In this document: positions 18,001-21,000 of the stretch, one piece after another
Layout of the letters: every line of letters begins with the position of its first letter
How positions within the stretch are numbered: the first letter of the stretch is position 1
Source of the DNA: Candidatus Aenigmatarchaeota archaeon
Lineage (GTDB): Archaea; Aenigmatarchaeota; Aenigmatarchaeia; CG10238-14; SCSR01
Assembly: GCA_039091335.1 (NCBI GenBank)
Contig: JAWCME010000002.1
Coordinates: 13,263-77,262 of the forward strand
DNA length: 64,000 bases
Direction of reading: 5' to 3'
Program-made: the position numbers

Positions 18001-21000
18001 GTTACTAAAAACTTTTTTTGTTTTATCATAGCTTATTATTCATTTTGTTTTTAAATTTAAAAATTAAAAATATTTTAATTTACTTGGTGATTGTTTGGCT
18101 GTATTTAAGTTGGTAGTAAGCGAACCAGAAACAAAGAAGAGTTATCAGTTAGAAGTAGAGCAGAGTAAAGTTCAGTCTCTAATCGGAAAAAAAATTGGAG
18201 AAGAATTTCCTGGAGACCTTATTGGTTTAAATGGCTATATGTTAAAGATTACAGGAGGAACTGACAAGGATGGCTTTCCCATGCACCCATCTGTTTCTGG
18301 AATGGGAAGAAAAAAAGTTTTGTTGTCCTCTCCACCCTGTTTTCATCCAAGGTTAAAGGGGGAGAGAAGGAGAAAAACGGTAAGAGGAAACACAATAAGC
18401 GAAGATATAGTCCAAATAAATGTTAAGGTTACAAAAAAAGGAGAAAAGCCTTTAGAGGAATTAATCCCTGTTAAGCCCAAAGAAAAGAAAGAAGAGGAAA
18501 AAACAAAAGAGGAGATAGAAACAAAAACAGAAAAATAAATTACAAATAAAAATTTCATCTTTATTTTTATTTATTAGAAAATATTTGAAGGGGTGATGAA
18601 AAGTAACAAAAGAGATTAATCCAAAGCTAATACCTAAATGTAACATAGGTATGGTCGGACATTGCTAAAGCAACCGAAAACGTTGCGCATGGAAAGACAA
18701 GCCTAGTTGAAACAATTACTGGAAAGTCAACACTAATGCATTCTGAAGAATTGAAAAGGGGAATTACAATTCGCTTGGGTTATGCGGATGCAAAAATTTA
18801 CAAATGTATAAAATGTGGAAAATATTGTTCAAGCGAAAAATGTCCTTTCTGTTTTTCTGATTGTGAGCTTCAAAGAACAGTAAGTTTTGTGGACGCCCCT
18901 GGACATGAAACTTTAATGGCCACAGTTTTAACTGGTGCTGCATTAATGAATGGGGCGATTCTTGTGATTGCAGCAAACGAGAAGTGTCCTCAGCCGCAGA
19001 CTCGTGAGCATCTTACTGCTTTGGAAGTCGTTGGAATTAAAAATGTGATAATAGTTCAAAGCAAGATAGATTTGGTTACAGAAGAAAGGGCATTGGATAG
19101 CTATAAAGAAATAAAAGAATTCATTAAAGGAAGTAGCATAGAGAATTCCCCAATAATACCGGTTTCCTCTAAACAGAGAATAAACATAAGTTCAGTTATA
19201 GAGGCAATAGAGGAATTCATTCCAGACCCGGAATTAGATGAGAAAAAAGAACTGAGAATGCTTGTTGCAAGAAGCTTTGACATAAATAAACCTGGTACAA
19301 GCCCGGAAAAGCTTGTTGGTGGGGTTTTGGGTGGAGCAATAATTCAGGGAAAATTAAGAGTTGGGGAGGAAATTGAAATTAGACCAGGTGTAATGGTCGG
19401 CTCAAAAAGAATTCCGCTTTTTACTCATGTTTTAGGGATTAAAAAATCGAATATAGAAATGGAAGAGGCTGGTCCAGGAGGTTTGCTTGGGGTATTAACT
19501 GGCTTAGACCCATTTTTAACTAAGTCTGATTCTCTTGTGGGAAGTGTGGTTGGTCTTCCAGGAAAAATTCCAGAAACAAGAGAGGAGTTAAGAATAAATG
19601 TTAATTTACTTGAGAGAGCAGTTGGTTCAAAGGATTTGAGCGCAATATCTCCAATTAAAATAGGAGAAGAGCTTATGATAAACGTAGGAACAGCACGATC
19701 TATAGGAAAGGTTAGCTCAATTAAAAAAGATTATATTGAATTAAAACTTAAAATACCAGTATGTGCTGAGGAAAAAGAAAGGATAGCGATTTCTAGGTCA
19801 ATCCTTGGAAGATGGAGGCTTATTGGTTGGGGTGTAATAAAGTAGTTTATGCGCAGAATACAGATGCTTGAATGCTTTTTCCAATTGGAGGCACTATTCT
19901 ATAAACACATGTTTTTGGACCTGTGCAATCAGTGTTTTTGAGTGTTCCTGTCTTACCAGGCTCTATTCTACTAGTATCACCAGTTACTGAGTCAGCGGCA
20001 TAATTTCCACCAGAAGTTCTTATTACTGTTATACTACCACAAGTCGCCGCATTTTCTGATATTGTACAACTACCACTTACAAAACTTATATCAGATGTTC
20101 CTATATTTCTTATCATTATAGTTACAATACCTCCTGTACAGTAACTATCGACTATTTCAATTCCCTGAGTAGCTCCAGTAAAAACCCCGCTTATATACAT
20201 ATAAGCCATTCCTGCCAAAGCTATTGTTATTACTAACATTAAAATAGTAGCAATTACAGCAGAAACACCCTTTTCCATTCCTTCACCTTATTAATTTTTG
20301 TTTTTTTTAATTTAAATATTATTTAAATAGAAAATATTTTTGTGAGAATTGTTTTTGACACCAATTTCTTAATCGATATGATAAAGTTTAAGGTGGATAT
20401 AGAAGAAATAGAAGAGCTGGTTGGAAAATGTAATTTTTTTATTTTTGATAGTGTAATAGAGGAGCTAGAAAAAATTGCAAAAACAAGAAAAAAAGATGGT
20501 ATGAACGCGAAGCTCGCGCTAAATTTTTTAAAGTCTAGAAAATTTAAAACAATTAAAACGAAGTTTAAAAGCACAGACGAGGCTATAGTCAATAGTTTAG
20601 AAAAGGATTCAATAGTTGCCACTAACGACTCGGAGTTGAGAAAAATATTAAAAGCTAAAGGAATAAAAACAATTTATTTAAGATCCAAAAAACATTTAGA
20701 GGTAGGTTGATAAAATGGTAAACTATTGGAAAGAATTGCCCACAGGTCCAAATCCGCCAGAAGAAATATTCATAGTTGTGGAAATACCAAAAGGATGGAG
20801 AAATAAAATAGAGTTTGATAAAGAATTAAATGTTTTTGTCCTTGATAGAGTTTTATATTCTCCCTTTCACTATGACTGGGCAGATTATGGCATAATTCCA
20901 AAGACTTTTTGTGAAGACGGAGACCCAGCAGATGGCTTTGTTTTGATGAGAGAAGGAACCTTTCCTGGTTGTGTGATTAAATGTAGGCCGATTGGGTTGC

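Follow-up and report, generated by a model that had tools for sequence, protein, structure and literature searches.

The gene for the translation initiation factor aIF2-gamma, as called in the genome of a small Aenigmatarchaeota-like (DPANN) hot-spring archaeon, begins within its GTPase domain. The locus therefore raises the question of where the missing part of the domain is encoded and how it could be joined to the rest. The source is a metagenome bin (G000; 87% complete, 29 contigs). The window, i.e., the whole stretch of DNA analysed, has 64,000 nucleotides and corresponds to C12:13263-77262; contig position minus 13262 gives the window position, which is used below unless a contig is named.

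Two putative exons and a 19-nt insert in the aIF2-gamma gene

The called ORF of aIF2-gamma, a single-copy gene in G000, occupies 18736-19845 in the ORF list and encodes 369 aa beginning with MHSEEL. When the frame was read from 18682, it gave VAHGKT... and matched positions 18-411 of the 412 in the aIF2-gamma model NF003077, and the Pfam GTP_EFTU match began at model position 14. An earlier note on this DNA had claimed that the called gene lacks the N-terminal part of its GTPase domain, that the missing piece lies upstream in another frame, and that a 19-nt insert interrupts the P-loop codons between the two. These claims were confirmed. The missing piece, KVTKEINPKLIPKCNIGMVGH, was found at 18600-18662, directly 3' of an in-frame TGA at 18597-18599, and both the frames and the alignment placed the insert at 18661-18679 (C12:31923-31941). 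The features of the locus are as follows.

18095..18538, + strand: upstream gene, 147 aa (ORF list), which we take to be ribosomal protein S6e from its translation read by eye; 58 nt separate its end from the aIF2-gamma leader
18590..18597, + strand: Shine-Dalgarno-like stretch GGGGTGAT, which holds GTG 18593-18595 and overlaps ATG 18596-18598
18600..18660, + strand: exon 1, open part, KVTKEINPKLIPKCNIGMVG and then base one of the His codon; its peptide aligns with the N-termini of unbroken relatives
18661..18679, + strand: putative intron, 19 nt
18680..19845, + strand: exon 2, which opens with bases two and three of the His codon and runs through VAHGKT... to the stop codon at 19843-19845

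Removal of 18661-18679 gave a 409-codon frame with a terminal stop only, corresponding to a protein of 408 aa. The earlier note had also predicted that cutting at the bulges described below would restore a complete P-loop laid out as in unbroken relatives. Indeed, the joined sequence reads GHVAHGKT and was aligned without gaps with the product of the unbroken G030 gene (74.5% identity, 404 residues, 0 gap openings).

An assembly or sequencing error, or a decaying pseudogene, might give a similar picture: only a truncated ORF was seen by the gene caller, exon 1 has no canonical start codon, and the genome is an incomplete metagenome bin. However, the insert and the A run upstream of it were identical in DNA contigs from two further samples (X2 record 2 and X3 record 8; 0 differences over 18562-18894 or further), and the sole aIF2-gamma copy is otherwise intact, with the above identity to relatives. 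Furthermore, the same architecture was observed in 35 independent cases from 34 genomes, and the helices carry compensatory changes, as described in the following sections. A broken gene or an artefact is accordingly an extremely improbable explanation.

The start of exon 1 was examined separately. As the earlier note had stated, no in-frame ATG, GTG or TTG precedes the Met codon of NIGM (ATG 18651), which is the sole canonical in-frame start in exon 1, and the nearest ATG (18596-18598) is one base out of frame; GTG 18593-18595 is likewise out of frame. The TGA at 18597-18599, in frame with exon 1, overlaps the Shine-Dalgarno-like stretch. The same layout, with GGTGATGN followed by the ORF, was observed in G086, G029 and G028, and the one-base offset is thus conserved in four genomes. 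Because the offset is conserved in four genomes and was reproduced in independent contigs, a sequencing error, which the earlier note had left open, is ruled out as its cause. Candidates for the start are GTA 18603, ATT 18615, or ATG 18596 with one base skipped. As routes, we considered that the ribosome slips by +1 on the A run, that it re-initiates at the Ile codon after translating a short upstream ORF, or that it uses a non-canonical start located 5 nt past the Shine-Dalgarno-like motif. For want of a canonical start codon in exon 1, the coding model as a whole is incomplete.

Bulge-helix-bulge structure of the insert

In the bulge-helix-bulge motif (BHB), two 3-nt bulges stand on opposite strands, each 3' of a strand of the central helix, and the symmetric cuts follow the second base in each bulge. 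The insert can be folded in this form, as had been proposed: the central and inner helices have 4 bp each, the two bulges 3 nt each and the outer helix 1 bp. The elements are listed below.

18655..18658, + strand: central helix, 5' strand UCGG (exon), paired with 18674-18677
18659..18661, + strand: 5' bulge A C / A, predicted cut after 18660
18662..18673, + strand: inner helix UUGC (18662-18665) / GCAA (18670-18673) with the loop UAAA (18666-18669)
18674..18677, + strand: central helix, 3' strand CCGA (intron), from the script parse
18678..18680, + strand: 3' bulge A A / A, predicted cut after 18679

A cut after the second bulge base was the only rule that gave back the invariant His of GH[VI]xHGK in all 35 inserts of the family described below. 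In three of these inserts (G010, G037 and G100), the first intron base, i.e., the third bulge base, is U, and the same rule fitted them.

Two reservations of the earlier note were reproduced here. First, the motif has almost no outer helix: the only such pair in G000 is C18681 with G18654, and 0-2 bp were observed across the family, so that the insert falls outside the strict hBHBh' form, which has at least 2 bp. We file it as a relaxed BHB, of the HBh' kind named in passages of PMC5829648. Since the outer helix is 1 bp, cleavage would need an EndA of relaxed specificity, which for this lineage is a supposition. Second, in G000 another fold is lower in energy than the motif (-7.7 vs -6.5 kcal/mol; z -0.78 over a 56-nt stretch). 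The four central pairs were nevertheless within the minimum-energy fold in 28 of the 35 introns, and some aIF5B introns showed a more distant outer pairing in that fold. Because minimum-energy folding fails in G000 yet holds in 28 of 35, it is a poor test of a motif this short.

The expected frequency of the motif was estimated with shuffled genome sequence, in which the relaxed form occurred by chance at about 1.3e-4 per position and length (10154 matches). For a match of 19 nt in a register that yields the correct protein, of which there are 2-3, roughly 4e-4 occurrences are expected by chance.

A family of inserts in aIF2-gamma and aIF5B

Subsequently, the homologous site was examined in 29 relatives' loci found by protein search. 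According to the earlier note, 25 of them are unbroken, three carry inserts (22, 22 and 20 nt) and one carries an intein. The 25 unbroken loci and the three inserts were found as stated, whereas the fourth interrupted locus has a 33-nt insert at the identical site. In all five intron-bearing genes from this search (G000 and four others), the synonymous sites of the exons read GTC GGA C..AC GT; this combination was found in only 4 of 31 rows, and unbroken relatives vary there.

Pattern searches extended the survey. At the order level, a strict pattern matched 6 of 118 genomes, with 1 match for the reversed-pattern control. At the class level, a looser pattern gave 37 matches in 35 of 371 genomes, again with 1 match for the control. 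Two of the 37 were rejected as chance matches that have neither the helices nor a GTPase. The remaining 35 inserts (18-33 nt) comprise 12 in aIF2-gamma and 23 at the homologous P-loop site of its paralogue aIF5B (assigned by NF003078, 673-703 bits), and one genome has inserts in both genes. The class pattern fixes GGAC, CCRAAD and the 3' exon, so that these positions are conserved of necessity and divergent inserts escape it. Outside the fixed positions, the two leading bases of the 5' central strand paired with the intron in 35 of 35. The central helix is UCGG/CCGA in 29 inserts and UUGG/CCAA in 6, with 0 mismatches and Watson-Crick pairs throughout the 35; the pair that covaries (C-G in 29, U-A in 6) includes a synonymous site of the exon. 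An inner helix of 3-11 bp was present in every insert.

The inner stems had been described as differing by compensatory changes. In an alignment of six sequences from six species, all five inner pairs were changed on both sides, which agrees with this description; 59 of 59 cells were paired, compared with 12-45% in slid controls, and the covariation score was reached by none of 500 shuffles. A covariance model (R1) scored the insert at 18661-18679 at 77.4 bits (E 1.5e-16), and picked up further cases in other families and in aIF5B unprompted. When R1 was run on G000 at E<=10, no second site was found besides aIF2-gamma. The P-loops of aIF5B (C24, from 1479) and EF-1alpha are unbroken in G000. 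We also scanned the whole of G000 with the relaxed BHB form for further coding-sequence introns. The scan gave 14456 matches, compared with the 10154 in shuffled sequence, and the 546 matches whose removal fuses two open frames were mostly ordinary intergenic spacers; such a scan is uninformative without homology.

An in-frame stop was found in 34 of the 35 inserts, and in 18 of 35 the length is not a multiple of three. An intein reading of the 19-nt insert was rejected on these grounds. P-loop GTPase inteins resemble the inserts in striking the most conserved coding stretch of the gene, but an intein is translated and then leaves the protein, whereas the present inserts carry stops or break the frame and therefore must leave at the RNA level. 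Both kinds of element occur in the aIF2-gamma gene of G028, where an intein (Intein_splicing and LAGLIDADG_3) lies directly after HGK, five codons past a 24-nt BHB intron.

The ribosome might also pass over the 19 nt by translational bypass or frameshifting, with the stem-loop as a hop signal and without RNA splicing. In the bypass of phage T4 gene 60, matched take-off and landing codons flank the gap. The present locus shares with such systems a stop codon closely 3' of the take-off region and a stem-loop in the gap. However, the take-off codon (GGA or CAU) does not recur before exon 2, where CCGAAA stands in nearly all cases, and the codon before the gap would be Leu rather than the invariant His in G010, G037 and G100. 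Furthermore, the gaps of 18-33 nt all have the exact 4-bp helix, the two 3-nt bulges and the covariation with the exon, none of which a hop signal needs. Bypass is thus a very improbable reading. We conclude that 18661-18679 is very probably an archaeal BHB intron of relaxed form within the aIF2-gamma coding sequence, belonging to a P-loop mini-intron family shared with aIF5B.

Predicted processing, related systems and possible spread

In the proposed processing of this BHB intron, the exon UCGG (18655-18658) of the pre-mRNA would pair with the intron CCGA (18674-18677), and a 4-bp inner stem-loop would close the intron. The tRNA-splicing endonuclease EndA would then cut after the second base of each bulge, and the exons would presumably be joined by RtcB ligase. 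The joined codons GGA CAC GUU would encode the P-loop GHVAHGKT, and translation of unspliced mRNA would meet a stop two codons past the His codon. A look for RNA over 18300-19900 found no dataset that covers the locus; the four runs compared all consist of contigs, and the one labelled metatranscriptomic (X7, marked as probably DNA) has no contig over 18516-19217.

As for the enzymes, RtcB was detected in G000 (PF01139, 284.5 bits, C25:37091-37729), in a gene cut by the contig end. EndA (PF01974) was not found by a Pfam search of the 87%-complete assembly at E<=10, and tblastn of G000 gave nothing convincing when five EndA-like ORFs, taken from the relatives G037, G014, G010 and G001, served as queries. 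EndA was present in all four other intron-bearing genomes searched. The relatives' enzyme is a single-unit alpha-type EndA, most like that of M. jannaschii; between its YERG and EH motifs lies a Lys/Arg-rich insert of 6 residues. In addition, a tRNA gene in the window takes the form of a canonical tRNA-Val only once segments of 13 nt and 12 nt are removed. Since two segments must be removed, mini-introns appear to be processed in the G000 organism.

Alternatively, the insert might be removed by some other nuclease and ligase, or tolerated through a start at the NIGM Met (18651) or past the insert, giving a protein without the first strand. The failure to find EndA in the G000 assembly, the lack of an outer helix and the position of ATG 18651 as the only canonical in-frame start in exon 1 are all in line with this. 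However, the insert would still interrupt a frame started at 18651, and no part of the P-loop is encoded by the called ORF (from 18736). In relatives, the peptide of exon 1 is conserved in the same frame. Moreover, bulges and helix are spaced exactly as in the known substrate of the endonuclease, and EndA occurs in the four genomes mentioned above. We therefore regard another route as unlikely, and the EndA-type processing of a BHB intron is compared below with known systems.

In 2002, Watanabe reportedly described a BHB intron in crenarchaeal cbf5 pre-mRNA. Passages of Yokobori 2009 (PMC2738675) state that the pre-mRNA of cbf5, a pseudouridine synthase gene, has a BHB intron in Crenarchaeota (Aeropyrum, Sulfolobus), and that it is cut out by the tRNA-splicing endonuclease. 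Within the literature searched, no archaeal coding sequence other than crenarchaeal cbf5 has a spliced BHB intron; one paper from 2020 (PMC7714728) speaks of a single mRNA in which the motif was found, and the reference list of a 2025 paper (PMC12397907) cites the cbf5 work only. Like the inserts described here, the cbf5 intron is a short intron within a gene that encodes a protein, with a BHB-like, often relaxed motif; it is patchy among relatives, with gain and loss, and both were first taken for frameshifts or truncated genes. In contrast, the present hosts are translation initiation GTPases of DPANN archaea, interrupted at the same codon site in two paralogues by introns of only 18-33 nt, and splicing here is a prediction. 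The crenarchaeal EndA has two subunits, whereas that of the relatives examined here is of the single-unit alpha-type.

Relaxed tRNA introns offer a second comparison. Passages of PMC5829648 describe non-canonical tRNA introns with relaxed BHB forms (HBh', BHL) in archaea with a broad-specificity EndA, and an alpha4-type EndA with an extra loop in several DPANN lineages rich in disrupted tRNA genes. The 4-bp helix, the 3-nt bulges, the inner stem and the weak or missing outer helix are shared with the present inserts; likewise, the relatives' EndA has its insert adjoining catalytic motifs, and the tRNA gene in the window has two mini-introns. The difference is that the host here is an mRNA whose codons form the exon half, so that structure constrains synonymous sites.

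In the unconventional splicing of HAC1/XBP1, a short intron defined by stem-loops leaves the mRNA independently of the spliceosome via IRE1, the tRNA ligase RtcB joins the ends, and the process is regulated. Protein-dependent removal, ligation by RtcB and a reading frame altered by splicing would be common to both systems. The nuclease is IRE1 there and would be the tRNA endonuclease here, and no sign of regulation appears in the present data. This splicing is mentioned in the abstracts of PMC8718801 and 10.1101/2025.06.17.660180.

With regard to spread, intron presence is patchy on the gene tree, and the aIF2-gamma intron of G000 is one edit away from aIF5B introns of another genus. Since this likeness crosses paralogues, movement between them is suggested. 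We tentatively raise the possibility, somewhat short of an even chance, that the inserts are a mobile BHB mini-intron family that targets the P-loop sequence of translational GTPases and travels between these two paralogues, perhaps also from lineage to lineage. This could happen by reverse splicing, or by short-homology gene conversion where the exon sequences are nearly identical; half of the recognition structure comes from the exon itself. The mini-intron family undergoes rapid gain and loss, and probably passes between aIF2-gamma and aIF5B. The patchy presence and the near-identical introns in two paralogues provide a system for asking how BHB introns spread.

The BHB intron reading would add two essential translation genes, from a different superphylum, to the coding sequences with BHB introns. 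The 35 natural variants define what the splicing enzyme must tolerate, and the RNA structure constrains synonymous codons of the P-loop. If the reading is true, a bolder extension can be drawn from two points: both hosts are GTPases that act as initiation factors, and translation of unspliced mRNA would end right after the His codon. Initiation-factor synthesis would then be tied to tRNA-splicing capacity. Finally, because gene callers truncate such genes, about 9% of the class genomes searched (34 of 371) carry a wrong annotation of aIF2-gamma or aIF5B.

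The interrupted P-loop of aIF2-gamma

The window spans positions 13263-77262 of contig C12 in the host bin (G000), which comprises 569,737 bases in 29 contigs and is 87% complete. Of the relatives that bear a name, the closest are MAGs labelled Candidatus Aenigmatarchaeota, and hot-spring metagenomes contain the DNA of the window. According to the earlier note, the aIF2-gamma gene as called lacks the first strand and half of the P-loop, the missing codons lie upstream in another frame, separated from it by a 19-nt insert (contig positions 31923-31941, window 18661-18679), and excision restores the complete P-loop in frame. 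These observations were reproduced as follows.

18736-19845, plus strand: aIF2-gamma gene as called in the ORF list, starting inside the GTPase domain
18600-18662, plus strand: KVTKEINPKLIPKCNIGMVGH, the missing first strand together with the front half of the P-loop, in another frame than exon 2
18655-18658 and 18674-18677, plus strand: central helix, UCGG of the exon with CCGA (sequence reading and script parse)
18659-18661 and 18678-18680, plus strand: the two bulges, A18659 C18660 A18661 and A18678 A18679 A18680 (script parse)
18662-18665 and 18670-18673, plus strand: inner helix, UUGC with GCAA, loop UAAA (script parse)

The frame from 18682 (VAHGKT...) covered positions 18-411 of the 412 in NF003077, the equivalog model of aIF2-gamma, and 19 nt separate it from the KVTKEINPKLIPKCNIGMVGH segment. 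When the insert was removed, a frame of 409 codons was obtained whose sole stop was terminal, and the joined frame aligned with the unbroken gene of a relative (G030) with 0 gap openings across 404 residues.

In the archaeal bulge-helix-bulge (BHB) layout, each strand has four helix bases followed by a 3-nt bulge, which is cut after its second base. As had been proposed, the insert can fold in this way, with a 4-bp central helix, 3-nt bulges and an inner stem. Cuts after 18660 and 18679 would join GGA C to AC GUU and yield GHVAHGKT. The two reservations made at the time also held. First, the only pair possible outward is G18654-C18681; the outer helix is missing, and the insert is therefore a relaxed form of the motif. 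Second, the motif is not the minimum-energy fold (-6.5 vs -7.7 kcal/mol for the intron with 14 nt on each side). Relaxed BHB forms without the outer helix are described under the names HBh' and BHL (PMC5829648). A genome-wide scan of G000 gave 14456 matches to the relaxed motif, compared with 10154 in shuffled sequence; the motif is common, and the fold alone proves little. The chance expectation was about 4e-4 at one fixed length, with two or three registers yielding the right protein. The decisive evidence is comparative.

A 280-nt contig of another sample (record 9 of contig set X3) matched window 18642-18683 apart from three differing letters and the absence of one loop base, at 18668; its source is probably a related species or strain whose intron is 18 nt long.

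Probable introns at one site in two initiation-factor GTPases

By protein search, 25 of 29 relatives' loci were unbroken and four had inserts at the same site, of 22, 22, 20 and 33 nt. The earlier note had the same count of unbroken loci and listed three inserts, of 22, 22 and 20 nt, plus one locus with an intein. A strict pattern, applied to 118 genomes from the order, matched in six of them, and its reversed control gave one match. In the alignment of the six sequences, all 59 cells of the proposed helices held standard pairs and all five inner-helix pairs were altered on both sides, in agreement with the compensatory changes noted before. The covariation score was reached by none of 500 shuffles, and slid controls paired in only 12-45% of cells. 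The junction GTC GGA C..AC GT was common to G000 and the four relatives whose introns came from the protein search, for which no DNA pattern was used, whereas unbroken relatives used varied synonymous codons there and had this combination in only 4 of 31 rows; on this comparison, the exon half of the structure looks selected.

The six aligned sequences then served to build a covariance model, which was run on 151 genomes drawn from across the phylum. Besides its own six it found further cases in other families, and it unexpectedly also hit a second gene, the paralogous archaeal IF-2 (aIF5B; NF003078, 673-703 bits, match from model position 20), broken at the homologous P-loop position between ...LGH and VDHGKT. 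A looser pattern was then applied to 371 genomes of the class. Since GGAC, CCRAAD and a portion of the 3' exon are set by this pattern, those bases are uninformative; the inner helix and the two leading bases of the central helix's 5' strand are left free. The pattern gave 37 matches in 35 genomes, and its reversed control gave one. Two of the 37, which had neither helices nor a GTPase, were set aside as chance matches. The others are 35 introns of 18-33 nt, 12 in aIF2-gamma and 23 in aIF5B, one genome (G073) having both.

aIF2-gamma introns (12), by genome: G000, G001, G004, G010, G014, G028, G037, G065, G073, G130, G168, G307
aIF5B introns (23 cases in 371 genomes; 18-32 nt; LGH/VDHGKT), relatives' loci: L134-L136, L139, L142-L148, L150, L152, L154-L167, L170, L174-L176, L178-L179, L181, L183

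The aIF5B gene of G000 itself (contig C24, from 1479) is unbroken. The central helix was Watson-Crick in 35 of 35 introns (UCGG/CCGA in 29, UUGG/CCAA in 6), with no C-A or U-G, and the exon base that varies in it falls on the synonymous third place of a codon. Every intron had an inner helix, 3-11 bp long and highly diverse in sequence. The four central pairs lay within the minimum-energy fold (again with 14 nt on each side) in 28 introns, G000 being among the seven exceptions. A cut after the second bulge base gave GH[VI]xHGK in all 35; because the third bulge base is U in G010, G037 and G100, the invariant His would be lost there with any cut farther downstream. An in-frame stop was found in 34 inserts, mostly directly behind the His codon, where the first bases of most introns form UAG or UGA; translation of unspliced mRNA would therefore end after some 20 residues. 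Eighteen intron lengths are not multiples of three, and the 17 that are all include an in-frame stop.

Translational bypass or frameshifting in place of RNA splicing is highly improbable, given that matched take-off and landing codons are absent and that His would change to Leu in three species. The same sequence in independent contigs, the 35 parallel cases and the gene itself, which is single-copy, essential and otherwise intact, contradict both an error and a pseudogene. Removal by some other, unspecified route is improbable and is not needed. The observation of the earlier note is confirmed, and its interpretation is well supported by these sequence comparisons: the insert is very probably a BHB intron in the aIF2-gamma coding sequence.

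Coding-sequence BHB introns are already known. Yokobori 2009 (PMC2738675) gives pre-mRNA splicing as confirmed for cbf5 and no other archaeal gene. According to Schwarz 2020 (PMC7714728), the motif had previously been found in one mRNA, to which the Haloferax mRNA HVO_1309, cleaved by the enzyme in vivo and in vitro, was added. In the reference list of a structural paper from 2025 (PMC12397907), the work on cbf5 is the only one cited. No report of BHB introns in aIF2-gamma, aIF5B or Aenigmatarchaeota was found in the open-licence PubMed Central or bioRxiv literature, subscription journals being outside this scope. Beyond these known cases, two GTPases that act as initiation factors in a DPANN lineage here show, at a single P-loop site, a dynamic family of such probable introns.

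Gain, loss and possible movement

On a tree of 37 aIF2-gamma proteins from hand-picked rows, with four intron-bearing rows added on purpose, the ten intron-bearing rows gave nine state changes, at least seven of them forced by well-supported branches. These rows clustered no more than shuffled labels, and intron presence differed within six supported sister pairs. A single edit separates the G000 intron from the aIF5B introns of G025, G092 and G094, genomes of a different genus in the same family, and at least five edits separate it from every other aIF2-gamma intron; the inner-helix types UUGC, UUAG, UUGA and GUGA occur in both genes. Such similarity suggests that the introns may move between the paralogous sites, although sequences this short are not proof.

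One aIF2-gamma P-loop holds two different kinds of intervening element.

G028:C13:2963-6003, minus strand: aIF2-gamma gene of G028 (locus L173) with a 24-nt BHB intron and an intein

The intein (Intein_splicing and LAGLIDADG_3) lies directly behind HGK, five codons past the intron. In G050, a 931-aa open frame was observed at the aIF2-gamma gene.

Candidate processing enzymes, tRNA gene and start of exon 1

G000 has a gene for the ligase RtcB, truncated at a contig end. The tRNA-splicing endonuclease EndA was not found in this 87% complete bin by Pfam search (E<=10) or by tblastn with relatives' proteins; an EndA of about 190 aa was present in all four other intron-bearing genomes searched (loci L039-L044). 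In G037 there is additionally a protein of 395 aa that has two EndA-like units and recalls the multi-unit enzymes found in other DPANN archaea. The EndA of G014 is most like the homotetrameric enzyme of M. jannaschii (1a79), and its YERG and EH motifs are separated by an insert of six Lys/Arg-rich residues; the EndA with this insert is conserved in close relatives, and the ARMAN-2 enzyme also has extra residues at this place. Alpha4-type EndAs with an extra loop are described from several DPANN lineages with many disrupted tRNA genes (PMC5829648).

58909-59005, minus strand: sole tRNA gene in the window, 97 nt, given by ARAGORN as a tRNA-Pro that has an odd, long arm

In the one solution tried, 13 nt were taken out at 29/30 and 12 nt at 37/38, which left a canonical 72-nt tRNA-Val(GAC); hence the gene appears to contain a pair of mini-introns, of which one lies at a non-canonical position.

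In G000, no in-frame ATG, GTG or TTG was found in exon 1 upstream of the Met of NIGM (window 18590-18620), as the earlier note had stated. Most relatives have an in-frame GTG within GGGGTGAG, 14-16 codons ahead of the Asn of NIG. In G000, G086, G029 and G028, GGTGATGN is followed by the ORF, GTG and ATG lie one base out of frame in or beside the GGGGTGAT motif, and GGTGA contains an in-frame TGA; G037 and G046 are likewise without a canonical in-frame start. The offset of the ATG had also been recognized earlier, and the error then considered did not hold: the stretch is identical in contigs of two other samples, so the offset is a conserved feature. Exon 1 may have a non-canonical start, either GTA or ATA, found in frame 5 nt past the GGTGA[TA] motif in five genomes, or an Ile codon nine codons ahead of the Asn (ATT at 18615 in G000). 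It may instead involve a recoding event; ATG with one skipped base would give M-K-V-T-K, resembling M-R-K-V of G015.

A 58-nt AT-rich spacer (18539-18596) separates an upstream 147-aa gene from the aIF2-gamma leader. By eye, it holds a TATA-like run (near 18561-18578), some 25 nt ahead of the GTG/ATG; the transcript may thus be nearly leaderless.
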